A stretch of DNA of 64,000 nucleotides from Marsupella aquatica (Eukaryota > Plantae > Marchantiophyta). Location of the stretch: assembly GCA_973895155.1 (NCBI GenBank), contig OZ316894.1, forward strand, positions 26,836,240 to 26,900,239. Reading direction: 5' to 3'. The translations under genes were made by a program, and so were the position numbers. The notes under the pieces are model-generated. The model did not search any database, was not told the DNA's origin, and was given only the letters and a program-made list of their open reading frames with translations. How positions within the stretch are numbered: the stretch's first letter is position 1; every line of letters starts with the position of its first letter. Positions 1 to 60,547 of this stretch are shown one piece after another.

Positions 1-636
1 GTTTCGACGTCGCTTCACCCTACTCCCACTTGGTTGAGAGTCTGTCAACTCTGCATCAACTACAATTCAGTGTCATGTCCAACATAAGTCAATCACTCAT
101 CACATGTGCTAAATGTACATGTCACCAACCACAAAGTTGTCACTATCTCCTTACCATTATGAACAACCTTCTTCCCCTTCTTTGCCATTGCCATATGCTC
201 CATGTCTGCTTCTGTTGATCAATAAACACACCACAATATTCAGGTTGAATCTATTAACCACTGAATTGTTGCTCAACATTCATATAGAGGAATTTAAAGC
301 ATCAGCTTACCTGATACCTCCTTGGCTATGGTCACTGAGGCACTGGGCACATCTTTTTCATTATTGCTCTTTGAATCACCTGATACATCAATCATGATGT
401 CACTTCAGATCCCCGTTGATCCAACCAGTTCCGAGACCAGTTCTTACATAAAAGATTACCTCCAACTTGCTTAAGCTTCACAAACTCCATGCACTTTTCA
501 AATGATTCATACTGGATTATAGCAGGTTACCTGTCTCATCAACCTTCTTGCCCTTCTGCTTACTGATTACAGGGTCCTTCTCTACCTCCACTCTTCCTGC
601 ATTCAAACCATTCACTCAATTCATGAAAACTTACTT

Positions 637-5700: not shown

Positions 5701-6479
5701 TTAGACATCAATTTCCTAGCCTCGTACATATTTTTTGGAATTGAATTACCATCTGGTAACACATTTCGGCGCAGGAAGGTCAACAACTCTGTCACAAATA
5801 TATTGGGAACATTGTGATTGCCACAGATGTTCAACAACAACACGACAAAACCCAGCTTGGAGCAGTTTGACCCCTCGTAGATAGGAATGCAAGCTTCTTT
5901 GATGTGTTTTGGGCCCCCAAACACCCACTCCCTCTCTGCTGCACCTTCCCCAATGTCAAAGTCAGGTTGAGCTTGGCCGTCGCCAATGTGTGGCTGCGGT
6001 TCATTGTCCTCTTCTGATTCCACTGTGTCATAAAAAGCATCAAGGTCTTCAAAAATCTCTTGAACCATTCTTGGGACATCCATGCCACCGTCCTCAGTGA
6101 CTGCCTCTGCATCTCCATCTTGGTCATCCACGTTCTCATGTTGGACCCCAGGACCATCCTCTGCACAGTCTATGTCCTGCTCTACGTAGTCTCTACGCCT
6201 AGCTGTATTAGAATCCACAAAGTCAGCTCTCCACTCTTCATCAGAGGAGTCTTCTTCTGCTGGTACATTCCAAACCCTCCACCGAGGGTGCCTTTCATGC
6301 CGCAGCAGGTGAAGGTGCACAGTGTTCAAACTCAACGACTTGAATCCTTGGCACTGTGTGCATGGGCATCTCATCCTCCTACTCCTACCTTGGGCGGCCC
6401 GGGCTTGTTCACGCATCCACAATTTAGAATCATGATGCCTAATCCTAAATGGGTTGTGAAGAGGCAACCTTGGAGCCAT
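2779..6479 (-). CDS. CACTA TnpD transposase (Tnp-associated Zn motif, Transposase_21, DUF4218, DUF4216-like); one in-frame stop
   Basis: Motifs CPCTQC, IDACPDGCVLF, LSLDGVNPF, YNLPPW, DVMHIEKN, KTHDYHVLMQ, WMYPMERYM, EPFVFPSQVEQAFF. Predicted GT-AG introns at 4554-4688 and 3539-3651. In-frame TAA at 3262-3264 between ORFs 3262-3528 and 2779-3246. Confidence 0.92.
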
Positions 6480-6805
6480 CACTATACACACGCACTCAGC
6501 ACCCTGTCATTTTATTATGCAAGTGAAAAATACACTTCCTGTTAAGGATTTCACCCCCGACTGTACTTGCCAAAATACGTAACGTTCCAAAAAATCAAAA
6601 AAACAAAAAATATAGGTGCCTGAGTCATGTACCTATTCTCAAGTGAATGAGACAAAATTCCTAAATGTTTGAGGGTGTCAACTCCTCCGCTGTCCTCACA
6701 TGTACTGCCTCTGCACGTACATCCATGACCATATCAGAGTCCAATCATGTATAGTCATAGACACAGGTGCCAGGTGCGAGACCGGTGTGAGATGTCCTCA
6801 TCTTA

Positions 6806-7339
6806 CTACCACATCAAATACGGATACCAATCCTGTTGTCGATGCCACTCAGCCCTGAGGTACTCAGGCATGTACATTAAGTCATCAAGGTCTAAACCCT
6901 GCTCATGCCATGGTGGTCTTCGATCCGTGCCTACAAGCAGTGGCAGCAGTGCCCTCCATGGTGCACATGTTGCTACCAAGTCCCTCCACTGGGTACTAAT
7001 TAGTCTATATTTGCAGATATCTTGTGCGCCAGACACCACAAGAACCCTCGGCCAGACATGTGTAAGAACTATATCATCTGCCAAATCAGGCAACAAGGAA
7101 CCACCTACAGCATCGTGCTTGTCTAACTCATCTGCTGAAAAGTAAATGTCCTCTTCCGACTGTGCATCCTCATTCACCACAGCATTCACAACACATCCAA
7201 GGTCTGCAGGCATTATCTCGGATGGAGCTACACTCTGTCTGGTTACCAATCCACACAAGTAAGCCCAAGCAGTAGCCATGCACGATGCAACCCGTAGGAG
7301 GACCCTACATAGGGCCTGACGGTCTGGAAGAGGCAGCAT
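6806..7339 (-). CDS. CACTA accessory protein: hydrophobic helix + acidic FFAT-like motif + F-box-like domain
   Basis: F-box pattern SLLPDLADDIVLTHVWPRV...YRLISTQWRDLV. Clear homologue at 22878-23402 in the same position relative to TnpD. The ATG at 7339 aligns with the homologue's start. Confidence 0.75.
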   Translation of the reverse strand: MLPLPDRQALCRVLLRVASCMATAWAYLCGLVTRQSVAPSEIMPADLGCVVNAVVNEDAQSEEDIYFSADELDKHDAVGGSLLPDLADDIVLTHVWPRVLVVSGAQDICKYRLISTQWRDLVATCAPWRALLPLLVGTDRRPPWHEQGLDLDDLMYMPEYLRAEWHRQQDWYPYLMW

Positions 7340-7515
7340 ACCCACCAAAGTCTTCAGCCAAACAGAGCCCAGCAAGTAGATTCACAGTCACACCCCACGC
7401 AGCAGGAAACAACAATCACTTCAACTGCGACCAACCATGACAAGATGAGTTAGTTCAAGGATCACATTTATTACAAAATTGTGTTTTATACAAAAATATG
7501 AGGGACTCCTACTCC

Positions 7516-8364
7516 TCACTCTCTCCCACCTTTGCTAAGCATACATCTCCGCTGAATCTTGGAGGGCCAGGCCTCAAAAATATCAAAGTCCCAAGCATTC
7601 TGTCGCTTCCCTCTAGCTGCTGATTCCAGAAGCCAATCAGGGGAAAGCACCCAAAGATTGTTGTTCATGACAAAATCACGCACTGTTGTCTTAAAGAATT
7701 TTCTGCATATTTTCATGTATGACAGACCTACAACATGAGTGGAGGTTTCTGTTAGACTCTCCTCCACTGTCCCACCTAGCTCAACAACTATAGACTTGTA
7801 CAGTCTGCACTTAGTCTCCCCAATTCCTTCTTCTGCAAATACCACACTGAACCCCTTCATAATGGTATTTCTCTCCTTGCCATGCTCATTCAATATAGCA
7901 TCTGCACGCATAGGATGGTGTCCTATGTTGACAACAGGTCCATATTGGACAGAAGCAAAGTTGGGTTTCTCTGCCGCTGCTTCATAGGCTTCCTTTTCAG
8001 CCAAAGCCTCTGTAGTGGCCTCCTCACTCTCCCACAACTCATATTGCTCAGTACTCTGTACACACCTATGTTTAACAGAATCGGTCAGCCAAGAGACTTC
8101 AACTACTTTTAGACCTTGGTTGGTAATGGCAGAATCAATGAAGGACCATGACCACTTGTTCATCACATCCAGCCATGTCCCCGCAACAACATGTGTAGTC
8201 TGTGGAGTGATGTCCTTGACTTCAGTCCCATGGAACTCTGAGAATCGTTTTTGTACGATTGGCCAACTCACTTGGGTGAACCCATAGTGGCCAAGAATCA
8301 AAATGGCTTTGATTCCAGCCAACAGAGGCGGGTGGTCAACCTTTGTACGTTTCCTAGAGGCCAT
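7516..8364 (-). CDS. Tandem BRCT-domain protein carried by CACTA A
   Basis: Two BRCT-like repeats: 'TTHVVAG...VVEVSWLTDSVK' and 'ELGGTV...STHVVG...VLSPDWLLES'. Basic NLS-like N-terminus SRKRTK. First ATG at 8364; the ORF track starts at an upstream GTG. Confidence 0.8.
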   Translation of the reverse strand: MASRKRTKVDHPPLLAGIKAILILGHYGFTQVSWPIVQKRFSEFHGTEVKDITPQTTHVVAGTWLDVMNKWSWSFIDSAITNQGLKVVEVSWLTDSVKHRCVQSTEQYELWESEEATTEALAEKEAYEAAAEKPNFASVQYGPVVNIGHHPMRADAILNEHGKERNTIMKGFSVVFAEEGIGETKCRLYKSIVVELGGTVEESLTETSTHVVGLSYMKICRKFFKTTVRDFVMNNNLWVLSPDWLLESAARGKRQNAWDFDIFEAWPSKIQRRCMLSKGGRE

Positions 8365-8962
8365 GTACACACGGGCCACCTAATCACTGCAGACCGGAAG
8401 ATAATGCGTTCACCTGATAATCGGAGGGCCCTTAAAATGCTGCGTTTATAACTTGGTCCAGTCCAGTCGTCTGGTGAGTCTCTGCTCCGATTCCAAACGG
8501 GAGAAATATTGGGACAAACGTACTAGACACCTGCAAGCATGCACCTCATAGTTTGAATATGTGCCTTCACAATATTGAAGGTGACAAGTGCAATTGTTTT
8601 GTGATGCCACATACAGATGTTGTAAATGGGCAGACATTCAATGAGAATACAAAATGTTGGTACACTTTAAGGGAATTCTCGCAAATTAAATAGCCTTGTA
8701 ACTTATATGCTCATAATGAGAAGTCCTGATTTAATTTAAGCAGTGTCATGTAAGTCGTGATCAAAATGATTGCAGAGTTAAAAAAGTTCCTAGAAGGCTT
8801 AAGGGCAGTTTTTGAAGGCATGTACCCAGGAACAAGTAATGAACTTAGGGTACTTGTTGCCTAAGCATCCTCTCCTACAGAGGTCCTTCTTCTCAAAATT
8901 GGAATGTCTGCAATCTCCAAGGTATCCACATCAGGTGCACTATGCATGTATATTATTCAGGT

Positions 8963-9643
8963 TCAAAGCCAAGAAATGTGATCTCTCATGGGAGTGTGCA
9001 AAGTAGGATCTATGGCATGGCGATGACAATAGAAGATCCATCGATCAACACCATGTGTAGAGTGATCATAGATGTGTCTGTCACAAGCATAGCCTTCTGC
9101 TTGACGCTCCTTCAAACAATGAAAGTGCCACATGGTGGGACACCTAACACAGTGGACTATGTCCACCCAGAAATCTTCATCGTGCTGACCACATGCCTTG
9201 CACTTATGAAGTGGGCAAGCTGTGGCAAGATCGGGCAAACATGAAAAACAAAAGAACCTCACACAATATCTGTCAGGGCATTTCCTAACAAGTGGTGGAG
9301 CATCAACAGAGCCCTCATAAGACCCCAACTTCCCACACTGTGCACACTTAGCCTGCTTCTCCAAACAATCAGTGCACATCCAGCCTCTCTGGTGTGCTGA
9401 CGGGAGGCCCACCCCTGGACAGTTGTTTTCTGCAGCAAGGTCAGACTCCGGGTTGAGGTGGAAATGCCTCATGCAAGGGCCCTCACATATGGCTAAGCCA
9501 CCACCATCGTCACAAATGGCACAACAATGAGCTGCCTTCTGGAAAATCTGACTTGCGGAGAAGTTACTACCATCTGGCCCAACTACACCTGTGTTGCTCA
9601 CCTCTGTCCCCCGCTTCTTGGCTCGGATTTTAGGGCGTGCCAT
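8963..9643 (-). CDS. EDM2/NSD-type multi-PHD finger protein with H3-tail-like N-terminus (CACTA A)
   Basis: CAICDDGGGLAICEGPCMRHFH...CPLHKC...CVRCPTMWHFHCL...IFYCHRHAIDPTLHTPMRDH follows the PHD region of plant EDM2 as I recall it. N-terminus MARPKIRAKK. Confidence 0.85.
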   Translation of the reverse strand: MARPKIRAKKRGTEVSNTGVVGPDGSNFSASQIFQKAAHCCAICDDGGGLAICEGPCMRHFHLNPESDLAAENNCPGVGLPSAHQRGWMCTDCLEKQAKCAQCGKLGSYEGSVDAPPLVRKCPDRYCVRFFCFSCLPDLATACPLHKCKACGQHDEDFWVDIVHCVRCPTMWHFHCLKERQAEGYACDRHIYDHSTHGVDRWIFYCHRHAIDPTLHTPMRDHISWL

Positions 9644-10471
9644 GCCTACGCATGAGACAGATAGTACAATTTAGCAGAGTGCACGGACAATACAATTTAG
9701 TGCAGTGTACAAAAAGTACAGTGTAGCATATAGACTAGAGTGGCAATTGCTACTGCAATGAAATGTTCACACACATGTGCAGAGTAGACATACTTTTTGG
9801 TTTGTTGAGCCCACACTAAAAACTGATCCCCTCGTACAATAGCTCCACCTACACCTCAATTTTGTGGCTATGATTCACCAAAGGAGATCTGCAACAAGAT
9901 TTAATGCATTTGAATCATATATAACAGTCGTGACATGTAAAACAGGCATTTTTTGAACAGGATTGGTATCAAGCACTGTGATCAGGGTTGTAATTTATAC
10001 ATCCTAAATAGGCTATGATAGTGAATGAGACAAATAAGTTAGGCAGAAATCACTTTTTCCAGGTTATCACATGGCCCATTAATTCCAGTCTTTGAAAGGA
10101 GACTTTTAAGTGAGCTTGCTAGCCTCTTAAATTAGGATATTGTACTTAGTGCAGCCATAATAGGATAAGTTATGTACTGTTGACCCTAAACCCTGGACCC
10201 AAAATTGGTCATAATTCAAAATCTTAAGTAAATATCCTCTCTGTTCAAGTCAAAGTGTTAAGTTATAGGTCAATGGTCTCTGGTTTGTGCATGCGGTGTG
10301 ACAAGTGGTCCTCTAGAGCGTGTGATCCAAACATGTGTAGACACCAAAGTGACCGGTGGTGGGGTCTGGGAGGGCAGGACAAGTGACATCGCCAGGCACA
10401 CTGCAGGATGGCGAGTGGTTCCAGATGATACATTGTGCTCTGTGAAAAAACCGACATCCAAGAGAACGGTC

Positions 10472-13400
10472 TGTGATGCCTAGACAGGAATCACTCGGCC
10501 GGTTAAGTGGGTAAAGCAGGAAGGCACCCTAGAAACACCTTAGTATAGTGACAAAACAAGGAAAATATAAACAATTAGGGGCAACCATGGAACCCGGGCC
10601 GAGGCCGGAGGTAAGGCTAAGGGTGAAAACCCGATTAGGGTTAGGGCGCGTTAAGCGTCGGCGGCTAGGAAGGATCAACGGGAAGAAGGACCGGCAAAGG
10701 AGAGGGGTAAGGAGCGCTTGCAGGAGATAGTGGCTCATTTGCGAGCACGAACTAGGCAGACGACTACGGGAGGCCAACTACTGTCAGCTGCTTAGGCAAG
10801 CACTCGGGGAGAGAGTAGATACCGACGATCAACCTAAGGAGGGTATGAGCAACGTCAATCAAGCGGCACATTTCTGGGGATGCCTGTTCGAACGGGCAAC
10901 TGAGTACATCAAGACTTACGAGGACGAGGAATCAGAAAGGGCAGCTCGAGAACGGCAGGAGCTCGCTCGATTGTGGGAGCTACAGAAGACGGCTTTCTTA
11001 GGAGGCGAACTCATCAAGGACGAGTTCCTGTGGACGCCTACTTCCAATCAACTCGACGATCTTCTGTTTTGCAAAGACAGCGTCGTCGGCATCCGAGAGG
11101 CCATCAAGAACTGCAACGACATACACTGGGAATTAAAGGGTAGCACGGAAAGGTGGACCCAGGCAACGGTGCTAGGAGAAACCTCCACGGCAGCAGAGAT
11201 GAAGAGGAAGGGAGCCGTCAACGATGAAGCCACCCCGGCAAAAAGAACGAGGTCGGCGGCACCAAAGAAGCCAGCCGAGCAGCAGAGCAGGAGGCAGGGA
11301 GAAGCCGAAGAGGAGGAGGTCGATCCCATCAAGGCCATTCCAACCAGGGATGACACCTGGAAGGGCTGGGCGGCAACCCTACCGGTGGAGGTGCAACTAC
11401 ATTTTGCACGGGAGGAGGATGCATGCTTTACGGCCATGCAGACCAAGAAGTACCAAGGCTTCATGGCCGGACCCGGCTTGGAGGCCTTTGTAAGATTACC
11501 ATGGCTGAAGCCGGAGGTACCGGAGTCAGACCTATTAGAATTCGTGGGGTCATGGGAACCCGAGACCAATTGCACGAGGATATATGGGAAGGATTTCTAT
11601 CTTACTCCCAAGGTAATTGCCGAAGTGTTTGGCCTGCCGATAGGCAATAAGACCAAAGTTGATACCAGGAAGACCTTGCCTGACAAGGAGTTCCGGTCGT
11701 TCCCCGGGCCATCAACGAAGAATGGCTTCTTCCGGAACACCTGCACCAACCCGCACATAGGAGAGATGATCGACTTCTTGCGGGTGACCATGCATTGTAA
11801 CTTGCCGAGGGCAGAGATCGGCAAGGCACAGGTCTATCTGGCAGAAAGGCCAGACCCAAGCCGGGACTACAATGGGTACCTCCTCAACCAATTGAAGAAG
11901 ATCTTAAAGGAGGAGCAGCAGGTAATCGGCATGGGGAGCGTGTCGCGGCTTGGCTATCACATGCCGCTGTTGTGCCGGTATGCCAGAGGTCAGACTTTTG
12001 CCCCAGTACTTCCCCTGCAGGTAAGGGCACCCGAGGAAGCTCCAACGCCGAGGCCATTGGCTGAGAAGCCTCAACCACCTGTTAGTCCTACGATCGAGCA
12101 GGTGTTTAGGCCCAGGAAGGAAGACTTGCCGATGCAGCAACCAGGCATGCAGAGTCTGCTGAAACTACTGGAGAAAGAAAAGAAATCGGCATCGGCAACA
12201 ACAACGGCAATGGCAACAATGCAGGACACTACTACAGAGGTAGGCCTACACCGGCTCACAAGAGAAAACCCCTTTGCTGGAGACAAGGAGAGAATCAGGC
12301 CGGAATCCAAGCCAGGTGTTCGAATGTACGTGGGAACCTCAAGCTCCGAATCTGAGGCAGAATTGCCTCAAGCTCCTACCGACGAAGAGGAGAGGGAGAA
12401 GCCGGACGTCCAAGAGGTAGAGGAGGCAGTGGAGGACTGCAGCCATGATAATTCCGGCTATGGGTCGGACCATCACGTTCCAGGAGTAAGGACCTGTGGC
12501 CGGTTTGTCCCCACACTTCCAAGGGTAGTGCGAGGGGACCCCAACCAGCAGAGTAGCCCTGAGTCTCCCCCACCAGATGTTGCTCCCCCGAGCTTCGACG
12601 GCATAAAACAGACGGTGCAGGAATTTCAGGAGCGAATCAAGCAGGAGGAGGAGGCCGCCCTGGCTAAGGAAAAGGATTTACCAGGAGGAGATTGGCCGGA
12701 GGACATTAGGCGGCTAGCCGAAAAAGGAAGCAAACCTCTAGCCACGATTGAAGAGATCCGCATGACGGCTTGGGAGCAGAGGCCACGATGGGCGATGCCG
12801 ATCACTTCTACTTACTCCACCTACGCTAAGAATAGAGCCATGGAGTATGGTGAGATGTGTGGGGAACTTGCGCTCGGCATCTTTGGAGAGGAGTTGGAGG
12901 TAGGACCCTTTTTCCATAGGGAGCAGTTGGAGAAGCACCAATTAGAAGAAGCGGTGGCTTTAGAGAGAAGCAAGAAGGACGAGGTCATTCGGCGGCTTAG
13001 GAGGATGGAAGCCGAGATTGAAGATCTAAGGGCGGCCAAGAAAGCCCAAGATGAACTGCGGATTAAACGACATGAGCTGAACATCATGCAGGGGCAGTTG
13101 GACACCGCGCAGGCTGATAATCAGAATATCAAGGATAAACTGACGCAGACGCAGGAAGAGTTGGCCGACACGATCAAAGAGAGGGAGAAGTGGAAGCAAG
13201 AGCTGAAGAATACAGAGGAGGCCCACATAACAGCCAACAGTCGGGCCATGGCGGAGACCCAAAGAAAGGAATGGGCGTTGAAAGGGGAGCTCGAGAAAAT
13301 CCGCGGAGCCCTTGAGCAGAAGGAGGCCGAGTTAGGGAAATCCTATCAAGGGATTATGGCGCTGCAGCAGGAGCTTGCGTCCCTGACGGCCAGCTTCAAG

Positions 13401-15131
13401 GCCGACCTAAGGGAGAAGGACGAGATGCTCGAACAGACTTACGCCAAGATGAACCAGATGGAGTCTATCATCATTGCAGAGCTCGACAAGGAGCTAAGAG
13501 CAACCCGGGAGGAGAGGGCTACCTTGAAGAAGGAATTGGAGGAAGCCCACAGGGAGCAAGAGGAGGCCAAAAACGAGCTGGAGGGGGCACGTAAGGACCT
13601 GGATGAAACCCAAGAGGAGTTGGAGGAAATCACGAGGAAGATGGAGAACCTACAGCGGCGGGCCGACAACCAAACAGAGCGGCTGAAGAAACAAGCCGCA
13701 GTATTTAAATGCTTAGCTGCAGCAGGTCCATCTCCCGTTGGGACAAACCAGTTACCAGGGGTGGTAATTGCCGAAGGACAAGCCGCGCCACCTGCACCAG
13801 TGCCGGAAGTAAGTGGGAAGGGGAAGGGACCAGCTGCCGAGCCACCAATGAAGAAGAAGCGGAAACCTTCAGGGTCAAGGAGTAATACGACTTCACAGGC
13901 CGTGGTGATCAAGGAGGTAGACCCAGCACCGACCCCAGACAGGGTCACGGCTAAGGATCCAACTACCCTAGGGGAAGGGGAGGCCGAAGCCGAGGGAGTG
14001 GCTGAAGCCGAAGTCGTGGGAGTGGCTGAGGCCGAAGCCGTGGGTATTGCCGAGGCCGGTGTCGAGGCTGAAGCCGAAGGTGGACCCAGTCAGGCCGAGG
14101 GAGAGTTGACTCGGTCAAGGGCAGGTAATCTGTCAGTAGGCGGGCCAACGGCAGTGGCTGAGGAGGAAGTGTTGGGGGCGTCCATTGAGGATCCACCACC
14201 GGTGTCGTGACGGTGCAAGGGCGCCGTTCCTTTTAGGGAGGGCGGACGTGGAGGGAGGAGGCGTGAGTGGGCAGGGCGGGCGCGGATCTCCATGTTTAGG
14301 ATTAGGATTAGAACCAGGAGCGGCCCTGACACTTAGCTTAGTGGGATTGCGGTTCCACTGGTAGGAGCAACACTTGTGCTCCTGCCTTACTGTACATAGG
14401 TAGATTCGGGCAAGTAGATTACTGTCAGGTAGATTAGGCTTACGATGCAAAGAATGGCGGATCCACTACCAGGATAAGTACCTGGGCAGCGGGGAGCTCA
14501 GGGCCTCTTCTTTAGCAAGTTTTTAGTTTGCACCAGCCGGGCTGGGATCAAGTAGTACGAGAAGCTCTCGGTTAGTCATACAGTGACCCTTGTGTATATT
14601 CATGTTTCCTCATGCCTAAGAGCTGAATAGAGTTGGCCTCACGGCTTAGTTCGCAGAACTTGTGTATGAGATGTACTGTTTGTATGGCAAGTGCATGGTA
14701 TGACTCAGTCAGAATGAGTCATTTTGCTATTTGTGTGTCGCATTAACTTGTGTGAAGAGTGCCCACATCAACAGAAGGAAGGAAAGTAAGCAGGGGAGTG
14801 AGAGTTGGATGTGTCGAGCTGAGAGAGGTCTTAGCGGCTTAACCAAGCCTATTGGGGATCATTCCGGCGGCGGAATCCAAACATACCTAACAAGACGGAG
14901 GGGAAGACAGGGGAAGACGGGGGAAGGCCTATATTAGGCCGGCTACGTATCTCATGACCCGATGAAGGATCTGTCCAGTATATGTGTGTAAAATGTTAAT
15001 AGTAGTAGTAGAAGGTTAGCAGCGTCCCATGCCGCTAAGCCGCGGAAACGGCCTCGCCAAGCACGAAACCTGCGGGAATCGGCTTGAGCTGGGGGGTTTC
15101 TTGGGTTTAGGGAGCCATGGGACGCACCACA
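10472..15131 (+). mobile_element. Giant (4660 bp) Ty3/gypsy solo LTR containing a long ORF
   Basis: Termini TGTGATGC...GCACCACA. Perfect 5-bp TSD CGGTC at 10467-10471 and 15132-15136. No gag/pol motifs recognised inside. The 3' part is repeated at 33559-34316. A related sequence starts with TGTGACGC right after the PPT at 60548. Confidence 0.85.
10845..14210 (+). CDS. LTR-encoded 1121-aa protein: PMD (plant mobile domain)-like region, Pro/Glu-rich linker, long coiled coil
   Basis: LLEFVGSWEPETNCTRIYGKDFYLTPKVIAEVFGLPIG resembles the PMD/MAIN motif W.PET...TL.DV..LLGLP. Heptad-rich stretch in the C-terminal half. KKKRK NLS-like motif. Open for 3366 nt. Confidence 0.75.
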   Translation: MSNVNQAAHFWGCLFERATEYIKTYEDEESERAARERQELARLWELQKTAFLGGELIKDEFLWTPTSNQLDDLLFCKDSVVGIREAIKNCNDIHWELKGSTERWTQATVLGETSTAAEMKRKGAVNDEATPAKRTRSAAPKKPAEQQSRRQGEAEEEEVDPIKAIPTRDDTWKGWAATLPVEVQLHFAREEDACFTAMQTKKYQGFMAGPGLEAFVRLPWLKPEVPESDLLEFVGSWEPETNCTRIYGKDFYLTPKVIAEVFGLPIGNKTKVDTRKTLPDKEFRSFPGPSTKNGFFRNTCTNPHIGEMIDFLRVTMHCNLPRAEIGKAQVYLAERPDPSRDYNGYLLNQLKKILKEEQQVIGMGSVSRLGYHMPLLCRYARGQTFAPVLPLQVRAPEEAPTPRPLAEKPQPPVSPTIEQVFRPRKEDLPMQQPGMQSLLKLLEKEKKSASATTTAMATMQDTTTEVGLHRLTRENPFAGDKERIRPESKPGVRMYVGTSSSESEAELPQAPTDEEEREKPDVQEVEEAVEDCSHDNSGYGSDHHVPGVRTCGRFVPTLPRVVRGDPNQQSSPESPPPDVAPPSFDGIKQTVQEFQERIKQEEEAALAKEKDLPGGDWPEDIRRLAEKGSKPLATIEEIRMTAWEQRPRWAMPITSTYSTYAKNRAMEYGEMCGELALGIFGEELEVGPFFHREQLEKHQLEEAVALERSKKDEVIRRLRRMEAEIEDLRAAKKAQDELRIKRHELNIMQGQLDTAQADNQNIKDKLTQTQEELADTIKEREKWKQELKNTEEAHITANSRAMAETQRKEWALKGELEKIRGALEQKEAELGKSYQGIMALQQELASLTASFKADLREKDEMLEQTYAKMNQMESIIIAELDKELRATREERATLKKELEEAHREQEEAKNELEGARKDLDETQEELEEITRKMENLQRRADNQTERLKKQAAVFKCLAAAGPSPVGTNQLPGVVIAEGQAAPPAPVPEVSGKGKGPAAEPPMKKKRKPSGSRSNTTSQAVVIKEVDPAPTPDRVTAKDPTTLGEGEAEAEGVAEAEVVGVAEAEAVGIAEAGVEAEAEGGPSQAEGELTRSRAGNLSVGGPTAVAEEEVLGASIEDPPPVS

Positions 15132-18100
15132 CGGTCATCCAACTCTAGGCCAGAAGCCCTACAGGCAGGACAGTCATATTGGCAACTGTGCACACACCCT
15201 TGGGCCCTAATTTGTGGCGGGTCATGTATGAGAGACAGAAATACCAAGGATGTTGGGAAGGGTGGAGAAGCAGGTACAGGCCGGCTGTAGTTGTTCCTGG
15301 CAACAACTGGGTACTCAAAGTACCATGCAGACTGGGCTGGAAGGATCCCAAGTCTGACATACTCAAGGCGCAACATCTCTGCCTTGCGTGCAAGCCGCAC
15401 ATGTTCATCGTTGCGGGTCCTCACCATAAGTGTTGCTTTTGTGGAGATGTCGTGTGTTCACGTCCTCTGATAAGCACCTTCGATCAGCAAGGTGAGCAGG
15501 AGCTGTACTTGCCTCACCAACAGCAACCAACCTTAAATTATCAGTTCCCACTCACTGTGTCATTCCATTGGTTCCAGCTAGGGGTCACAGTGTAAACATA
15601 GCATGAAACACTCCTAATCAACTTGCTTACAAACTGCAATATCCAGAAAGAGTGAAAGTCTCACCCTCCAGTGAGCAGCAGAGAGGTAGTTCACTAGATG
15701 TGTTGATGTGCAGTTAAACCTCCACTATTGCTTACTTCTGGTGTATGCTGCTCAGAAGAAGACATATTAGTAGCAGCAAATTGCAAATAATGGCCATAAG
15801 CAAACCGTGAGAGTTTGCAGAATGCTACGACAAATCCATCACAGCAGTGCTCCATAGGAATGAAACCAAGCAAAATTTGGTGACCTCGGCCAATGACAAG
15901 GCCAATGTAGTGAACAATCCTTGACCGATCAGGATATGGATTGGAATTACAATTAGTCAGCTCTTCTTCTTTGTTTTCTAACTCTGGGGGAAATGAGCAT
16001 GACCAGGGAATTCTTTGAGAAATAGAAGTGCACAGGGAAAATGAAATTGGCTCATTCAGCTGCGCAAGACCGGCCATTGCAGCAAACTTGGACAGTTGTT
16101 CCGCAATACATAAAATACCCTGACTTACATGCAATCGATACAATCTGCTTCTGTTGGCTGTCCTATAGCTCACGGTAGTGCCGTTGGGATAGGGTAAGTG
16201 AATATTGCCATAGCTGAAGCACATTGAGCTTGCAGCAAGAAGTGAAGGAGCATGGCCAAAAGCAGAAAAGACAGACAGGTTTTACAAGAAGAAACTAACA
16301 ACCGCCAATCTGCTCAAATCCGCTGCATAGATCAAACCCTCCAAACTACACAGCCCTCCTTTGAAAACAATCCAATGTGCTTTGGCTGGTGGATGACAAG
16401 GACTAGGAGAAGAGGAAACGTCTACACAATCAATCCCAATGACGGGACACAGAGACCAGGCACAGAGAGGATTTGTGCTTAGACAAAAACCACAAATTGT
16501 AGCATGGGCGCCATAGCATTGGGCGGCAATGGGAAGAATTACATCAAATGAGTGGACAGAGAATGAACAGTCCGGTTATAGGCAAACAGCGACTGATGCC
16601 CTGATGCAATGAAACACGCATTGACATAGCGGAGGGACATAAAAACTACATAAGCCAACTTACTGACCTTTTAAGGCCCACAATTTCAAGGGGAGGGACA
16701 AAGACAGCAATAATAGACGCAGAGACAAAGCTGTACTCTGTCAATTGAGTAGGCAAGTGGGTGGGTGAAGATCAACAACCAATGTAGCAGCGCAACCAGA
16801 GTAGCAACAAAGAAGCAGGTTGCCCTCAGTCTCCTATTTTTCAAGCAGCTCGTGCTCGCGGTCAATCTCCTATTCTGCAAGCAGCTCACGCTCGTCCCTC
16901 TTGTTCTGCAAGCAGGTCATTCTTGTCGGCGATGGTGCAAGCTGTCCTCCTAAACTCTGACACTCAAAATGAAAAGACCAAGCACCTCCAATCTGTTTGA
17001 TCCCTTCCGCAAGTAGCCGAGCGGCAGACGATAATGTAGGGATCAAGAACCAAGTGCCAGGCGGACATTGCACAAAATGAGGACCGGGGGCAGAGACAAA
17101 ATCTACCGAAATCTACCGAAATCTACTTCTTGGGGTCCAGCCCACGGATGGACATCATGCAAGGTGGTCAAAAATGGTAAGTGCAATTGTTGGAGAGCTG
17201 TACTCGCGATTACTAACGGTGCATCCACAAAACGCGTCATCAAGTTGTCAGTGCGGCCACAACAATTTTGACAGTCTCAGGATCACAGGTCCACAAACAA
17301 GTTGCAAATGAAGACACACAACGTCCAGGAGGGAAAGTCCGCAACACTAACCCTTTGTAAAGCCCCCGAGCTTACCTTCTAGCTGCCGACGCAAAGAGAA
17401 AACCTACTCGGACACTGAAGCAACCCTAAACTCAAAGTCTCACCTTAGCGCAACAACTCCTGGATTGGATTCAGCTAGCTCAGGCTCAATGAAGCATGTC
17501 GCCTCGGGCTCTCCGGATCCTCCCAAGGCAGCAAACAAGTTAGGGTCCACGGTCCTTGTACCTTCACCGCACCGTTGTGTCCTTCCCAATGCCTCCTCTG
17601 TAGTTGCGTCTTGTCTGCAACTCTACAGCTCCCCGTGTTGCTCTGCCGCACTTAGTTATATTCCAACGCCCGATCGTGACCAAAAAGAGTTTTCTCCTGC
17701 TGGACAGCACTAGGCATTTGTTCAATCTCTTGATCACGCGTAAGCAGCTACAGGTATGAATCACTCAGTTGGCAGCTCAATACGCTTACAGCAAGAGGGC
17801 GCAATAGGTAGAAGCTCGCGCTACCTAGACCAGCACAAGGACAAAGCATTAACATTGAAACTGTACCATGGAGCTGGAGAAAACCACAGAGTAATTGAAG
17901 CCTAACAATACCCTTCTTAGCTCCCGACTCCAAACTCTCGGCTCCCAGTTTGCAAGAACAAGCACTATGAAAATATGGATTCCCACATTGACTGTGTCCG
18001 CAGAACAGATGCAACCCGCATGCAACTTCACCAGCTCAACGGCAGCTTGACAACTGAAGGACCTCCCAATGAGCCTCACGGCCTCCCGATGCTCGTTATG

Positions 18101-19841
18101 GGTGCAGCAAAAGGGTCTATACCACAACTGTGACCGAGATTGTCACCCAAAACCTTGAAGAAACCCCAACCTCCGACTCCTCAAACTCCGACAAGCTCCT
18201 CACGAACGTTGCAGCAGCCACAACCTTCTTCGCCCTACCAGCCAAAAACTAAATGTCCCTAAAGGAGATCGAGCAGGAATGCAGGTCTATGAGTAGACTG
18301 CAAGCGCAAGGTTAGATCACTGCAACTGCCTGAACACTGCTCCTCGAGAGCATAAACAAGCACATAACGCGCGGGAAGTTCACTCCGCAATGGTCGCAAA
18401 AAGTGGGCAACACTGAAAGGAAAACCCTACGTAAAACCCCGAACACTCCACCCCTCACGTTCTAAGTTCAATGACAATGGCGAAAACTCCAAAGAGACTC
18501 CCAAAGTGAAGTTTAGTGCCTGAAACCGAATTAGGGGAAGCCACTCAGCCTTACCGTTTGAGTGAGCCGTTGAGTGTCACCCAAAGTGGGACAAAGCTAC
18601 AAAGTGTTACTGCATGGCCAACTTAGGCAATGAATGGTCATATTTGCACATACATGGTCGGTAGTGACATTTTATTGCACGCCGTAATCAGGATTAAGGT
18701 TGCCCAACATTATATCCGGTCCTAAAATGCAATATTCCCGGTGCAAGAATGTGACCTAGCTCTAATGTATGAAAAAGGACCGGTACAAATCTACCTTTGT
18801 GCATCTTGACCTTTTATAGATGGATTTAGTAATGGCCAAGAATATCTTGACCATCCCTCCATGGTCCAACCTCCATGAACCCCACTTCATTAAACCCAAA
18901 ACCATTTTGGTCACAAATAAGGAAATTTAATGAGTTATGCCCCTTGCTATCACCCTCTTTATAGATTTATTTTTTTGTTTGAAATTTTACATTTATTCCG
19001 CGTGAACCCCACGGATGGGGGAACCAGTAGGCCAAATGGCATCATAAAACCTCAACACCCAAAGGAGGCAATAACAAAGAGTTACTCAACCAGGGTCATC
19101 AGATCAGGCAAAGATTGCGAAGCCGTTCTTCTAGTGGTCCATGCAACAAGTAACAACTAGGGAATAAGCACTAGAAGGCGCAGTAGGTCAGCATAGTGTA
19201 AGTGTAAAGTGTCAAAGCATTGTCTAGTACTAAATTAATCCACCTGATTAGTAAGAAGGGGGTGTATACTGTAATGGGAAAAAGAAAAAAAAACCAAGGC
19301 ATGAGCAAGGGCCACCAAGAGTGGTGCAGCTATAAGCTATAGGGATTGAACACAATGCGGGGGGGGGCAGTGGCACTATGTATGAGGAAATCACGGGAGT
19401 ATCGGTGTCAAATGAGTCGACAAAACTCCCAGATAGCCACACAGTATAAATCAATCTCACAGAAGGCTGCCATCAATGGAGGAAACAATTTGACACGACC
19501 CACATCTGAGAGTGTGAATTCGCTCGATCTCCAGCAGTTCTTTGGCACTCGATAGACGTCGGTGCTTTCGGCTCAAAGATGAAGGAGAATTACCCCTCCT
19601 CAACATAGAGTGAACATTACCCATGATGTGCTAGACTATATATTCACCCTTCACAAAGTAGCAAGGTTACTTCTCATAGTCTTTTAGTGAACCATAAAAC
19701 TCTCATAGTCTTTTCTAGTCTTCAACAAAACCGGTGCAATGGGTGCGAGTCGTTTTAAGTATGGAAAAAGGACTTAGTGGGCATAGTCCTATAAGGTATG
19801 GTCTAAATTGCCCCGGTTTCTACTAGTGAGTTATCATGTAC

Positions 19842-22625
19842 CTGAGCCATGGTGCAACCTGTACATGGTTCTGTAGGTAATAGGTGTGGGCAGCATCTCG
19901 ATCAGCAACAGTTAGAGACAGTTTACTTGAGGCCCCTTCCAAGACCACACCTTTAACCCCTGCCTCTTCTTCAGAGTCCCAGACCCGCTGCCGAGTTACT
20001 TGGCACTGAACCATATACTCTGCGAGAAATCCCAATGCCTCCTCTAGGATATAACCCTCAGCCATAGATGCCTCTGGTCGTGCCCTATTTCTTACAAAAC
20101 CCTTTAGGTTTTTCAGGTATCTCTCGATTGGAGACATCCACCGTTGTGATACAGGTCCACATATATCTAGCTCTTCCACTATATGCACCATCAAATGTGT
20201 CATGACATCAAAAAATGAAGCTGGGAAATGCATTTCCAGAGCACACAAAGTATGTGCCACATCTGTCATCAGTTCATCCTTAGTGCTAGGGTCCCAGACC
20301 TTACAGCAAATTTTACGCCACACACGACACACACTAATGATAGCCATTCGAGGTCCTGTTGCCATCAAGTCCTTCAATGCCAAGGGAAGTATCTGCTGCA
20401 TTAGGCAATGGTAGTCATGAGACTTGAGACCAGCCAACTTATTGCTGGCTCTCACACACTTTGCCAATGAGCTACCAAAATCTGTGGGAACTTTTCAAGT
20501 TCTTCAAAGTGCCCAGAAACTTCTCCAGCTCTGGTTTGCTCATCACATAAGGCGCCTTGGGCTTCACAAAGTGATCCTTCTTATTGTTTGGATGAGGCTT
20601 CATCCATAGCTGCTCGTGAATGCCTTCAGCCTCCATATCATTCCGCACAGCAGTGGTATCCTTCTTCCCAGAAGTAGTGTGAATCAAATTCTGAGCAATG
20701 TTCTTCTCTGTGTGCATGGGATCCAGCACATGGTTGATCAGAAGTTTCTGTATGCAAACAACAAAAAGCAAATCAGTCCAACTGCAAATTGACATGTGTG
20801 TACAATGCTGGTTGCAATATCTTCAAGTAAAAACCGTGAATGCAAGTGTGATTTTACTCACCGACCAGTATGGCAGCTTTGCAAGCCCTTGTGTCCTCTT
20901 CACCCCATGAAGCTTCGAAGGACAGTTCTTGCTTCCTTGTTTGGCCCCAGGTGTTTTCAAGTACTCTTCCACCTCAGCAGCAAAGGCTAATTTTTGCTCA
21001 CAAGTCATCCTTGGGGGAGGCCCCCGTGGCTCGCACTCCCCATCAAATTTTGCTGCATAACTTTGGGAGCGGTACTTATGGTTCTCCTCCAACCACCTTC
21101 TACTCCCCAGAAATACATTCTTGGATAGAGCAGCAGACCTTCTGCAGCTCACATTGGGACCACACACAATGCATCCATTATCCTTTTGTGACTTGACCCG
21201 ATATGAGACCCAAAGCTGGATAGTGATTCACTGTCCACAATAGAATGGCCCGCAGATTGAACCACTTATTCAGGCCAGGCCTATCAAGTGAATCAAAGCA
21301 TGGAACTCCCTCCCAGAGCTCCAAAAGCTCCTCCAACAATGGAGCCATGTAAATGTCAATGTTGCGGTCAGTCACTGAATCAGGCCCAGGGATCAGCAAA
21401 GATAACATAATGAAGAACTTCTTGGTGGACAACCAAGGGGGCAAATTGTAATTCAACAATACCACAGGCCACGTAGAATGCTTGAGGTTGTTTTCCCCAA
21501 GGGATTCACACCATCCAGAGCCAATCCAAGGTGTACATTGCGAGGCTTTGCTTCAAATGTTGGATCAATTGTTGTATCAATCTCCTTCCATGCCCTAGAA
21601 TCTGCAACATGCCGGACCTTTCCATCTGTGCTTTTACTGTCCTTATGCCATGTCATCAACTCCGAAATAGCCTTGCACCTATACATTCGTTTCAACCTGG
21701 GTATGAGGGGGAAATGTCGAAGGACTTTCACAGGTTGCTTTGATTGCCCAACCTGCTTATACCTAGGCTTTTTGCACAGTGGACACTCATCGCAATCAGC
21801 ATGCTCCTTTCTAAATAGGACACATCCATCCTCACAAGCATGAATTTTGACATAATCCAAGCCAGCATGACTGATCAGCTTCTTGCATGCATACAGGTTT
21901 TTAGGCAGCAGATTCTTAGCAGGCATCAACTGTTTCCCCATCAACAAAAGCAGTTCATCAACTCCAGAGTTGGTGAAACCATGATTATGGCATGTGTTTA
22001 GAAATGTCAACACAAATGACAATTGGGAAGTAGTGGACCCCTCATACAAAGGGGCACACGCCTCTTCAAATGCTTGCATCATCTTCTCCTCTGCCTGTTG
22101 GTCCCAAATCTGAGGTGTTGCTTCTCCAGATGTACTGTCCGCCTCCAGAAGATCATCCATGTTGAAGAGACCCTCTTCACTTTCCTGCAGAGTGGGCTCC
22201 TCTGCAGTGGTTTCTTGGACGGGTTCACTGGCACTAGCAGTTTCACTTGGTATTGCCAGGTCCTCTAGTATCCCAGGGATATCTATGCCACAATCCATAT
22301 CATTGGCAAGTTCCTCTGCACATCTTGCATTGTCCACAAGGCCCTCAAATGCACCATCCCCCTCCATGCATCATGCATTCCACTCATCATCAGAAGAGTC
22401 ACAGTCCTCGCCCCACCAATACCTTTGCGATGGGTGGCGAGAATTCTGAATGAGGTGCTTTTTGACAGTCCCTAGACTAACACGATTACCCCTACAGTTG
22501 CAAATGTAGCAAGGACATTTTATCTTTGTCATCCCAGCAGCTCTATAGGCTGCAGTCTGTCGACGCCACAACTTGTCATCCCTCCTATTCAAGTCATCTT
22601 GACTACCACGAAAGTTCCTCAACAT
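19842..22625 (-). pseudogene. Degenerate CACTA TnpD transposase of element B
   Basis: Fragments 22371-22637, 21453-22367, 21178-21465, 20823-21167, 20472-20795 and 19823-20467 carry the same motifs as the element A TnpD (IHACEDGCVLF, LALDGVNP, YNLPPW, DPMHTEKN, KSHDYH), with stops and frameshifts. Interrupted by element A 13 bp into the intron after PWLR. Confidence 0.9.
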
Positions 22626-22877
22626 TGTTTCAGGCACTTCAAGTCAATCCAATCAATGTCTTCCACTCAATTTGCCAAAATGTAGAGGACCCACGTGCCT
22701 TGCAACCTCTACAAGCTCTCTAGATACTGCAATCCTCCACTCTAATGGTACCAGCACTAGACTCCACACCTCTAGGCTACTCTGCATGTACATCCATGAC
22801 CATATCAGAATACAATGGTGTGTAGTCATAGAAACCCACTCCACTAGAGTGATATCAGATCTGTGAATCTTATCAGA

Positions 22878-23402
22878 TCAGTACAAATACCACTCCTGTG
22901 CTCGATGATAGTCAACCCTCAGGTACTCAGGCAAGTACATTAAGTCATCTAAGTCTAACCCAAGATCATGCCATGGTGGTCTACGATCAGTGCCTACAAG
23001 TAGTAGTTTCAATACCTTCCATTGTGGGGACATGGCTACCAAGTCCCTCCATTGGGTACTAATGAGTCGATATTGGCAAATGTCCTGCGCTGATGACATG
23101 GGAAGAACCCTAGGCCATACATTTGTGACTACTAAATCATATGGCAAAACATGTAGCAAACTACTACATTCCTCATCATCCTCTTCACACCCGGCTTCAC
23201 ACTCATCTGCCGAAAAGTAAACCTCCTCCTCATCTACCTTACAATACTGTACAACAGATTCAAGGTTGACAATGGTTCTGCCAGGTGGGGGTACAAATTG
23301 TCGGATTACCAAACCAACCAGCCAAACCACCACAAAATACATCCATGTAGCCACCCGTATGAGGAGTCTACATATGGTGTGGCGGTCTGGAATAAATGAC
23401 AT
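22878..23402 (-). CDS. CACTA B accessory hydrophobic-helix/FFAT-like/F-box-like protein
   Basis: Homologue of 6806-7339. Shares YFSADE, VWPRVL, SAQDIC/GAQDIC.YRLISTQWRDLVA, LLVGTDRRPPWH and GLDLDDLMY.PEYLR. Confidence 0.78.
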   Translation of the reverse strand: MSFIPDRHTICRLLIRVATWMYFVVVWLVGLVIRQFVPPPGRTIVNLESVVQYCKVDEEEVYFSADECEAGCEEDDEECSSLLHVLPYDLVVTNVWPRVLPMSSAQDICQYRLISTQWRDLVAMSPQWKVLKLLLVGTDRRPPWHDLGLDLDDLMYLPEYLRVDYHRAQEWYLY

Positions 23403-24028
23403 ACCGAGTGTAGTGTTTCACCTCCAGCATTCACTGGTGAGAACCTACAACATGGACATGACAATAAGCTCAGCTCCCTCATAATTTGTACTTGCCACTC
23501 CATAGTTGTCTCTTTTGAGTTCATACTGTGAATTTTTATTTGCAGAAAAGTTTTACGTTTTATGTCTTTGTTTCATGTGTTTAGGATGCTTCTTTCAAAC
23601 CTGAAACTCTATTGCTACCCACAGACAGCAGGTTGAAGAAAATACCCCATTGGCAATGCCCCATCCATGACACCCAACAAACAAGACAACCAGATAAACA
23701 CTGGGTCCAAACAATTCAATCACATCCACAGTATTGACATCCATAAACATCAACTAGGATGGACCTCATATTGGTATACAAAATAATTACCAAATAAATA
23801 AGTAGAGTTTGAGTACTTTGATTTTCTAGACAGCTGGCCTTAGTCAATTAAACCCAGAGCATTGTCTCCATGCTCGTGCTAACCATTCACACAGTGAATA
23901 AAATGTGTGAACAAAATGTGTAAACAAAATGTGTGATGCGGACAAAACATCATTGTTCCATTAACTAACTAAGTGTATCGATGTCTACAGTAGTATTGAT
24001 GTATTTGAACCAAAATGGACCACGTCAA

Positions 24029-24682
24029 TCAAAGCCAGGAGATGTGATCATGAGCTGCTGTGCCTAGAGCAGGGTCAATAGGATGGTCAGGACAGTAAAT
24101 CATCCAACGTCCCTGGTCATGTGCAGTATGATGCCAGGGCACTCTGTCCGATGCAAAACCTTGACGCTGGCTCTCGGCTAGGCAAGTACGATGCCAAGTT
24201 TTGGGACATCTCAAACACTGCACGGCCTCTGCCAGATGAGGGTCACGATGGTCTTGCTGGCATGCAACACATGTATGGATGGGGCAAGACTCCACATCAA
24301 GTGGCAAGCATCCATGACAATAAAAACGAACACAATATGGCTGGGGGCACTGCCTGGCTACAACAGAGACAATGCCACACTGAAAACACCTGTATGTCTT
24401 ATCCTTACACTCTGGACAATACCAAGGATCGTCATCCTTGCCTGGTGCAATAAATACGGCAGGGCATGTGCCGACAGCTTCACCAACTTTGGAAACATGG
24501 TGGAAGTGCCGATGGCAAGCCCCATCACACATGGCCAGATCTCCATGCCAGTCACAAATGCCACAAAGCTGGGGACTACACTGACGTTTCTCAATGTCTG
24601 ACCACAATTCAATCATCAACACATCTTCCTCCTTTCTCATTCGAGTATCATTCTTTCTGGCTTTATGCTTGGTCCTAGCCAT
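24029..24682 (-). CDS. EDM2-type multi-PHD protein with H3-tail-like N-terminus (CACTA B)
   Basis: The ATG at 24682 gives MARTKHKARK. CGICDWHGDLAMCDGACHRHFH...YCVRFYCHGCLP...CPIHTC...CLRCPKTWH...IYCPDHPIDPALGTAAHDHISWL is colinear with 8963-9643. Confidence 0.85.
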   Translation of the reverse strand: MARTKHKARKNDTRMRKEEDVLMIELWSDIEKRQCSPQLCGICDWHGDLAMCDGACHRHFHHVSKVGEAVGTCPAVFIAPGKDDDPWYCPECKDKTYRCFQCGIVSVVARQCPQPYCVRFYCHGCLPLDVESCPIHTCVACQQDHRDPHLAEAVQCLRCPKTWHRTCLAESQRQGFASDRVPWHHTAHDQGRWMIYCPDHPIDPALGTAAHDHISWL

Positions 24683-25510
24683 TAAGACCACTGGACATTC
24701 ATGAACAAGAAAACTTGAAGAGTTATTACACTGTTAAATTGGCTGTCATAAAACACGTACTACCACTTGCATATTGCAATCCAATATGGGGCCAGGATGC
24801 AGAGGACTCACCAACTGTACTCAACCAAGAGGAAGGCACTGAAATTTGGAGATTGTCTTGATCGGTTTCAGATGTAGTTCTCAATCCCCTCTCACGTCAC
24901 AAGATGTAAAACAAGGATTCATAATCTGCAACAGCACAAATGTGACACAAAATAGTCATTGGACTACATACATGCATCTGATGTTTTGTTTCAAACTCCT
25001 TCTGTAACTAAAGGTTGCCTCAGACTCATTCAATACTATTCCAATTATGCAAAGGACAATAGGCTTGCCATCGAACTCAGAAAAATAATTGCATGGACAC
25101 TCTTCAACTTTCTTCATTCACTATACCCGATCTAGAGCCATAAGGCATATGTGCGAGGGGGGAGTGGGAGTCATTGACAGAGACTTTTACTATTGGATTC
25201 AACTTTCAGTTAACAGTAGATTGTGGGCCTTCTGGAACAGAGTCTTGAACATAGATGTTGAGTGGACTGGTGACATCTTAGATTAAAATGTTGTGCTTAG
25301 TAGATAGGATTTTTGCAATATACTTCAAAACTTTAATTCCACTGAGGTGTTCAAACCCTCAATCCAAAATTGTACGAATATAGAAAAAGTCAGAGCAGTT
25401 CAAGTTATTTCTCAGTGTTTAAGTTACTATTTCATCCAAAAATATGCCTTATCTCATTGCATCCTGGTACGTGCATATTGTGTTAGAATTCCTGCAGCTG
25501 TAAACTAACT

Positions 25511-25963
25511 TCAAATCAAACATGATGTGTCCGAGAAACCCCCAATAGCGGGGTTGGGCAGGGCTGGACACCCGAGATCACTATCCACACCATTCAACAA
25601 TGCAAAGTGATTCCAAAGGATGCATATCCTCCTACTTTGTTTAGCAGCTTTGTCAGCACCGACCAGGGTTTTTGGGTTGACCACCCTACAAGCAACGCAG
25701 TCATACTGGCAAGAATGGATACATCCATGCGCTAGGATGGCCTTGACGTGTGGCACTTCGCCAATAAGTGACACATACACCACGGATGTGGGAAAGGGTA
25801 ATGCCACAGGTGGAGGCTGGCTGTAGTCATTCTGGACTACAACTGGATAACAAAAATACCATGTAGAGTGGGCTGGCCATGTGCCACGTCTGACAAACTC
25901 CAGACGCAATCTCTCTGCGGTGCCTGCAAGACTCTGAGAATGAGCGCTGCGAGTCCTCACCAT
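25511..25963 (-). CDS. Small Cys-containing CACTA accessory protein of unknown function
   Basis: 150 aa: MVRTR...LRLEFVRRG..PA.S.WYF.YPVV..N.YS.P.P...PFPTS...GCIHSCQYDCVAC. Homologue in element A. Confidence 0.75.
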   Translation of the reverse strand: MVRTRSAHSQSLAGTAERLRLEFVRRGTWPAHSTWYFCYPVVVQNDYSQPPPVALPFPTSVVYVSLIGEVPHVKAILAHGCIHSCQYDCVACRVVNPKTLVGADKAAKQSRRICILWNHFALLNGVDSDLGCPALPNPAIGGFSDTSCLI

Positions 25964-32530: not shown

Positions 32531-33558
32531 TACAATTTGTAATAAAAATAATTGTTTGTCGCTATAATTCCGGAGGCATGCATATTGTGACTGAAAATGT
32601 GTGTTGATAATGACATCATGGGGAGAGGTTTTGGACATCACAAAATAATCTGTTTAATTTTCAGTCATTTATCAAAACTGTTTTGACACTCTAATGTTGG
32701 TGGCATTTGCAGTGGCAAAATGTATTTAAAGAATGACATTACTCATAGTGATTTCTAAGAATGGAAAATGATCTACTTTATTTCAAGTCATTTGCAAGGT
32801 CCTGCATTGACACTCTACTCTTAGTGGTATTTGGAGTCACTAAAATGTGCGAAGAGAATGACCTTCTTTAGAGTGATTTTGGACTAAGGAGGATGTGGCA
32901 CTTGGTTTGAAGTTGCATCAAATAATATTTATTGGACTCTAATATTAGTGGTATTTGTAGTCAGACAATTTGTGATAATAATGACTTTATATGTAAAGAA
33001 GTTTTGTACATTGACAATTAATTCACTCAATCTTAAGTTGTTTGTAAGAATTTCCTTGTCACTAAAATATTTTAAGTAATTTTGCCAAAATTCATTTGTG
33101 ACTCCACTGTTGGTGATATTTACAGTAACAAAAGGTGTGCTCACAAATGACATTATTTCAAGTAATTAAGATCACTTGGAAAAGCTTCACTTGATTGGAA
33201 GTTGATTGAAAAAACACCTTTACCATTCAAATATTGGTGGTATTTGTATTTGTAGTGGTTTTGGTTAGTAGTAAAATCTTAGTTGAAAATAGAGTTGTAA
33301 ACATCGACGGTAGAGTGGACGGTGGATTGTAGTGATTTGTAAATTTGTGTAATATACAACTCTAATTCAAGTGATCTAATTTTTAGTGGCAAAAAAAAGA
33401 GTTGTAATCAGTGATTAAGGTAACATAGTTCTAAGTAGAGTAATAAAATGCAGATTATTACAACCCATTAAAAAAATAGTGGTTGGCACCACGTATGAGT
33501 GATTTAGGCAAAGTAGTTGCAGGGCCTGTAGTAGTAAAACACAGGTTTTCTTCTAGTG

Positions 33559-53460: not shown

Positions 53461-53494
53461 CCTTTATACTCCTTTCACCAGTAAAACCCTCTCC

Positions 53495-60534: not shown

Positions 60535-60547
60535 AAGTAGGGAGCTA
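60535..60547 (+). promoter_or_regulatory. Polypurine tract of the gypsy element
   Basis: aagtagggag-cta immediately before TGTGACGCC; the same motif occurs at about 36890. Confidence 0.75.

Follow-up and report, generated by a model that had tools for sequence, protein, structure and literature searches.

Accessory genes under purifying selection in two nested giant CACTA transposons of the liverwort Marsupella aquatica, including an EDM2-derived PHD gene that may counter silencing

Are the additional genes of a giant transposon passengers, or does the element keep them for its own benefit? The question is raised by a stretch of 64,000 nucleotides from the liverwort Marsupella aquatica (contig OZ316894.1, positions 26,836,240 to 26,900,239; hereafter the window), in which two CACTA/EnSpm elements, A and B, carry small accessory genes upstream of the transposase gene TnpD. 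Comparison of the two elements indicates that these are very probably maintained element genes. We propose that these giant CACTAs keep such genes under purifying selection and that one product, an EDM2-derived protein consisting of a PHD cluster only, shields the element from silencing, a reading to which we give roughly even chances.

All element genes of A and B lie on the minus strand. The order in A is a small cysteine protein gene (small-Cys), PHD, BRCT, F-box-like, three-exon TnpD and TnpA-like. From the 5′ end, B has about four 705-bp tandem repeats, small-Cys, PHD, F-box-like and TnpD.

19814..19828, minus strand: 5′ terminus of A, beginning CACTAG; the TnpD homology of B stops there
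15132..15427, minus strand: small-Cys gene of A, 5′ part; 149 amino acids in total when read through an insertion
10313..10471, minus strand: small-Cys gene of A, 3′ part, continuing 15132..15427
8963..9643, minus strand: stand-alone EDM2-type PHD-cluster gene of A, 226 amino acids, intronless, basic N-terminus
7516..8364, minus strand: two-BRCT gene of A, 282 amino acids
6806..7339, minus strand: F-box-like gene of A, 177 amino acids, hydrophobic N-terminal helix; Pfam F-box E 0.08, below the cut-off
2779..6479, minus strand: TnpD of A, three exons, 1150 codons; splice model with Pfam domains
50..2601, minus strand: TnpA-like multi-exon gene of A, toward the left edge of the window; splice model out of frame, weak Transposase_24 match (E 0.014, below the cut-off)
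33544..33558, minus strand: 5′ terminus of B, beginning CACTAG; adjoins a partial copy of a retroelement-like sequence
29634..32535, no strand assigned: about four tandem 705-bp repeats in the 5′ region of B, with sub-repeats of about 124 bp
25511..25963, minus strand: small-Cys gene of B, 150 amino acids, open
24029..24682, minus strand: stand-alone EDM2-type PHD-cluster gene of B, 217 amino acids, open
22878..23402, minus strand: F-box-like gene of B, 174 amino acids, open
19841..22625, minus strand: visible part of B TnpD, broken and truncated by A; Pfam E 2e-11 and 2e-33

The TnpD of A matches Transposase_21 (E 9e-60), DUF4218 (2e-27) and DUF4216 (7e-06), which identifies a CACTA/EnSpm transposase, and the two TnpD proteins are 54-55% identical in two segments. 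Each element shows one terminus beginning CACTA, its 5′ end, inside the window (at 19828 in A and 33558 in B); the 3′ ends fall outside it. A is visible over 19.8 kb, of which a 4.7-kb insertion is part, and B over 13.7 kb. A preliminary description of this DNA, made from the letters alone, had given the elements different terminal inverted repeats. The 5′ termini are in fact akin to each other (CACTAGTAGAAA versus CACTAGAAGAAA). The 705-bp array near the 5′ end of B is a possible satellite source or TnpA-binding array.

The shared order and co-orientation of the small-Cys, PHD and F-box-like genes upstream of TnpD, which that description had noticed, are borne out by the coordinates of the minus-strand open reading frames (ORFs), as is the restriction of BRCT to A, since tblastn found no counterpart in B. 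Protein identity between A and B is 50% for small-Cys, 42% for PHD and 57% for F-box-like, and the small-Cys protein of A, read across the insertion, aligns end to end with that of B. The accessory ORFs are intronless, each with its own start and stop. An exact-sequence look-up of eight window proteins in a protein collection gave no matches.

The preliminary description took these to be maintained genes and called for dN/dS, the ratio of non-synonymous to synonymous substitution (omega), between copies. We fitted a pairwise maximum-likelihood codon model to A and B and tested omega = 1. The ratio is 0.096 (about 0.10) for PHD (215 codons, p 1e-15, with dS of about 5.8, which is saturated), 0.45 for F-box-like (167 codons, dS 0.76, p 4e-4) and 0.56 for small-Cys (145 codons, dS 0.84, p 0.01), and each value rejects 1. 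The TnpD segments gave omega of 0.07 or less with dS above 5. A counting method was concordant, with pN/pS intervals below 1, and in each shared gene the third codon positions are the most divergent between A and B. The observed/expected ratio of CpG is 0.25-0.48 in the seven accessory ORFs and 0.26-0.34 in TnpD, versus 0.77-0.78 in two host PPR genes. The CpG depletion of the accessory ORFs is transposase-like, not host-gene-like, and is consistent with long residence in methylated DNA.

Relatives of the PHD proteins add to this. A profile built from seven sequences matched 584 proteins at E ≤ 0.001. Among the best 150 of the 584, the top matches were mostly short stand-alone proteins; long proteins came lower, and many of these combine DNMT1-RFD with the PHD cluster (38 scanned). 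The PHD proteins have five relatives at 37-81% identity, and stand-alone PHDs down to 37% identity retain the zinc ligands. A quick unrooted tree was made from 48 rows, namely 12 stand-alone and 36 cellular proteins (at least 500 amino acids), leaving out one frameshifted near-duplicate, short fragments and most remaining matches. In it the 12 stand-alone PHDs form one side of a branch against the 36 cellular proteins, with SH-aLRT support of 100. PHD loci were found in none of 257 and one of 373 candidate stretches in metagenome contigs, and in none of 72 in viral contigs. The match in that single stretch (L001) is short and weak, the ORFs around it look unrelated, and it was not usable.

The claim of maintained genes therefore stands on omega below 1 in all three shared genes, full-length diverged relatives, transposase-like CpG depletion and a single group of stand-alone PHDs; these make decaying captures improbable. 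Passive capture of the Pack-CACTA kind would hold that host fragments were recently exchanged between families and are of use, if any, only as camouflage from small-RNA silencing. Recent exchange is suggested by the low dS of two genes, broken copies exist, and capture with camouflage is described (PMC13317346, in the part available). We nevertheless regard passive capture as very improbable. Neutral evolution is contradicted in three of three genes, and each ORF, free of introns, has a start and a stop of its own. Diverged stand-alone PHDs keep their zinc ligands and form a group separate from cellular EDM2, and CpG depletion points to long residence. For the PHD gene, passive capture appears largely refuted.

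The state of the copies was also considered. In this copy of A, TnpD has one stop (3262-3264), and a 4.66-kb insertion interrupts the small-Cys gene:

10472..15131, plus strand: TG..CA insertion, LTR-retroelement-like (LTR, long terminal repeat), with a 1159-amino-acid ORF and a 5-bp target duplication

The insertion lacks a terminal direct repeat and its ORF is coiled-coil-rich; an unusually long solo LTR carrying a gene is one possibility. Positions 61904-62452 hold a distant homologue of this ORF (E 2e-11). Positions 14367-15131 match 33562-34316 at 90%, the latter being the partial copy beside the terminus of B. In B, TnpD has one stop and three frameshifts besides the insertion of A, and the three accessory ORFs are open. 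The preliminary description had cited open ORFs beside a dead transposase in support of maintenance. The observation is correct, but it is not significant on its own (p 0.09-0.15).

Other copies were sought in 13 sequencing runs. Five, under three organism codes, carry at least half of the sampled accessory-region words, and the best-matching of them may be the source of the window itself. Four of the five were compared in detail. All four have a sense codon at the stop site of A TnpD, and two (X2 and X5) have a joint that bypasses the small-Cys insertion, so these lesions are not family-wide. Four further runs with a small share gave short pieces only, many of 151 bp and near-identical, possibly carry-over, and none bridged genes.

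Is the cassette a fixed unit? The dS values of neighbouring genes lie about seven-fold apart, at 0.76-0.84 for F-box-like and small-Cys versus more than 5 for PHD and TnpD. Either F-box-like and small-Cys were exchanged between families after the split of PHD and TnpD, or their silent sites are constrained. The pattern suggests module swapping among elements. The single conserved cassette of the preliminary description accordingly holds for the shared gene order and may not amount to a fixed unit, given the dS spread and the missing BRCT of B. The same dS spread, together with the confinement of BRCT to A, would fit maintained but unrelated tools gained singly, some acting outside chromatin; the F-box-like protein, for example, might be a membrane-anchored protein instead of an SCF adaptor. 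Its F-box match is below the cut-off, its model is confident for a hydrophobic helix only, and the small-Cys protein has no match. Yet the two families, although saturated at the silent sites of TnpD, have retained the gene order and orientation, and we consider unrelated tools unlikely.

The F-box-like proteins scored 13.3 and 13.2 bits with the Pfam F-box, under the family cut-off of 20.5. The best PDB profile match is an F-box protein (E 0.43), a substrate domain was not recognisable, and the structure model (pLDDT 46) is confident only in the hydrophobic helix at residues 7-36. The role of ubiquitin-ligase adaptor that had been assigned to this protein is therefore weak. Three relatives at 51-55% identity conserve the C-terminal half. 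The small-Cys protein has no match in Pfam and no usable one in Atlas.

The naming of the BRCT protein is upheld by Pfam (E 6e-14) in two stretches, with repeats that align to each other ungapped. One full-length relative has 61% identity. Atlas returned generic clusters only (below 0.9). The best PDB matches are DNA-repair proteins, namely ligase IV (E 0.006), BRCA1 (E 0.03) and TdT (E 0.29). These weak matches are mixed as to subtype, Pol-lambda/Pol-X or phosphopeptide-binding tandem, and the structure model has a pLDDT of 32. Both this model and that of the F-box-like protein were too poor for a fold search. A resemblance would give BRCT2 a Pol-lambda origin, but it was not confirmed.

The repair-type matches bear on another explanation, in which the cassette steers transposition. 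PHD would anchor the transpososome to heterochromatin, a safe place to land, and the BRCT pair would tilt the repair of the excision break towards sister-chromatid copying and so raise copy number. A is inserted in B, within the TnpD gene just past an exon end, where B homology stops about 10 bases into the intron, and B adjoins retroelement-like sequence. Such nesting is, however, expected by chance in a repeat-rich region. PHD is also encoded separately and shows no obvious part that would bind a transposase, B has no BRCT, and the PDB matches do not resolve the BRCT donor. Steering seems to us rather unlikely, if slightly less so than unrelated tools.

The proposed shielding from silencing concerns the PHD protein. 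Pfam NSD-type PHD matches are below threshold, and the PDB entries of NSD2/3 match at E 1e-10. With ten names looked up, a protein named EDM2 (P0021) matched at E 9e-32 and liverwort EDM2-like proteins at down to E 5e-38. The best named cellular homologues come from the liverworts Calypogeia, Riccia and Marchantia. The profile matched over almost its full length, and a composite NSD-type PHD cluster homologous to that of EDM2 is present; the EDM2-type label proposed earlier is supported by these named homologues. EDM2 and EDM2-like proteins share this cluster but have 690-1630 amino acids versus about 220 here (217-226, PHD only). The transposon proteins lack DNMT1-RFD and the long C-terminal region of the full EDM2 architecture, and the residues before the first Cys are altered. 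On these sequence features, the transposon PHD is classed as a derivative of EDM2-like genes, not an EDM2. The quick tree, unrooted and with few bryophytes sampled, does not single out a donor. Three liverwort EDM2-like proteins of about 700-770 amino acids (P0017, P0019 and P0022) have the PHD cluster at or near the C-terminus and are plausible candidate donors.

EDM2 binds H3K9me2 chromatin and suppresses proximal or premature polyadenylation there (PMC7529245). It represses the DNA transposon Mu1 and promotes COPIA4 (PMC3632883). H3K9me is reported to stay on TnpA-activated Spm elements (bioRxiv 2026.08.24.746577), which makes transcription through marked chromatin a real need. Here the long CpG-depleted unit begins with several short ORFs and has TnpD and TnpA last. 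We propose that the PHD-only protein would bind histone tails on the silenced chromatin of its own element. Without the flanking domains of EDM2, it may act as a competitor or a minimal mimic of host EDM2-like readers. Repression or premature termination would then be less effective along the long transcription unit, and TnpD and TnpA at the far end would still be produced. The BRCT protein may work at the excision break, and the F-box-like and small-Cys proteins may be maintained helpers. The accessory genes likely act as swappable modules common to transposon families. A pro-element chromatin role for PHD is about as probable as the contrary, while a single pathway for all four proteins is doubtful.

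Several observations weigh against this proposal. The omega of F-box-like and small-Cys is only moderate, and a short BRCT segment from one X8 contig has non-synonymous changes in 7 of its 10 altered codons. Some copies have a 43-nucleotide skip in the F-box-like gene (X2 and X5) or a deletion over the 3′ part of small-Cys (X2 and X3), and an unexplained joint (7827-7919) lies within BRCT in one X1 contig of family depth. The contig scans showed TnpD linkage for none of the database relatives. Three positions ahead of the first PHD Cys, 77 of 91 cellular proteins have an acidic residue (D or E), which is absent in all 17 stand-alone proteins in which the motif was found; the mark read may thus differ from that of EDM2. 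In Spm, TnpA is already anti-silencing, and a second system is perhaps superfluous. In Marchantia, H3K27me3 lies on 40% of transposons (PMC10952607, in the part available), which makes the relevant mark uncertain.

Non-coding DNA between the genes was compared as well. The preliminary description saw no intergenic similarity, and five of six comparisons between A and B are at or near the shuffled level. The sixth contains one conserved block, 49/56 identical, which none of 100 shuffles equalled:

6709..6764, minus strand: conserved 56-bp non-coding block, A copy, between the F-box-like gene and TnpD
22780..22835, minus strand: conserved 56-bp non-coding block, B copy

The block, upstream of TnpD, outscores the surrounding coding genes in conservation and ends in a branch-point-like and an acceptor-like motif. 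It is a possible splice acceptor or cis element. A hairpin was found in A only (z -2.3; z -1.2 in B). A shared-leader splicing model, with an acceptor before each ORF, was dropped after a null test (p 0.17-0.63). Upstream of the small-Cys gene of A, a 176-amino-acid ORF starting with ATG (15694-16281, minus strand) has no B counterpart and a weak Pfam match (E 0.03), and is possibly a fifth cargo gene or due to chance. Elsewhere in the window, the two host PPR genes ending DYW/DFW (40724-43003, plus strand, and 47589-50186, minus strand) are inverted to each other within a 3.3-kb inverted duplication of 84% identity. Degraded Gypsy-like gag/pol remnants with an extra downstream ORF occupy 52659-63576.

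How do A and B compare with known systems? Sources are taken here as far as their available text goes. Plant CACTA/En-Spm elements (PMC8978399) share the TnpD set (TAD, Transposase_21, DUF4218 and DUF4216), the CACTA terminus and perhaps a downstream Transposase_24-like gene. A and B differ by the separate conserved genes, four in A and three in B, that precede TnpD. In the survey, Transposase_24 and Peptidase_C48 are the sole additions among four domain architectures, and its main text contains 'PHD' 0 times. The red-algal giant Plavaka elements of the EnSpm superfamily (bioRxiv 10.1101/2025.02.11.637652) likewise have an old multi-gene cassette (PAG1-3) beside an EnSpm-type transposase, and this cassette is common to other transposon superfamilies too. 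Its products, however, are predicted enzymes (adenine methylase/SET and 2-oxoglutarate (2OG) oxygenase) versus the binding modules of A and B (PHD, BRCT and F-box-like). PHD, F-box and BRCT occur 0 times in the Plavaka main text, and no SET, adenine-methylase or 2OG-oxygenase Pfam match was found in our accessory ORFs up to E 0.5. Fungal TET/JBP-carrying DNA transposons, EnSpm included (PMC12730594), resemble A and B in having a chromatin-related accessory gene that is exchanged between superfamilies, but it is a single demethylase-type enzyme, with no reader or multi-gene binding cassette. Element-encoded counter-silencing in plants is represented by VANC/KIU of VANDAL MULEs and by Spm TnpA (PMC13317346, PMC6446971, bioRxiv 2026.08.24.746577). 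Those proteins recognise cognate DNA motifs and their function has been tested, whereas the PHD of A and B is host-derived and a predicted histone reader.

None of the open-licence papers listed by our full-text searches describes CACTA elements with accessory genes for PHD, BRCT or F-box proteins; among 470 papers matched in one search, the 20 listed contain 'EDM2-like' 0 times. PHD, F-box and BRCT also occur 0 times in the available main text of the Arabidopsis transposable element atlas; a survey of 962 Spm protein structures may hold such domains in its supplement. The earlier statement that no CACTA family with this cassette is described thus survives for the gene content; for the general idea, Plavaka and fungal TET elements are precedents. 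Accessory cassettes on EnSpm-superfamily elements are a known kind, and the gene content of A and B appears new.

A broader proposal, which we hold tentatively, is that a swappable accessory region, virus-like and assembled from reduced host domains, is common to the DNA transposons of bryophytes and comprises an EDM2 decoy, a repair-redirecting BRCT pair and an F-box protein that directs a silencing factor to degradation. Counter-defence would then proceed via histone marks and host proteins, not sequence-specific DNA binding. The tested plant anti-silencing factors (VANC and TnpA) bind cognate DNA, and a maintained host-derived histone reader, if true, would be a different route. The EDM2 pathway would likewise be a front in the conflict between host and transposon. 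As the genes are small and intronless, each could be cloned and tested in a model liverwort, and their targets could expose unknown components of silencing or repair.

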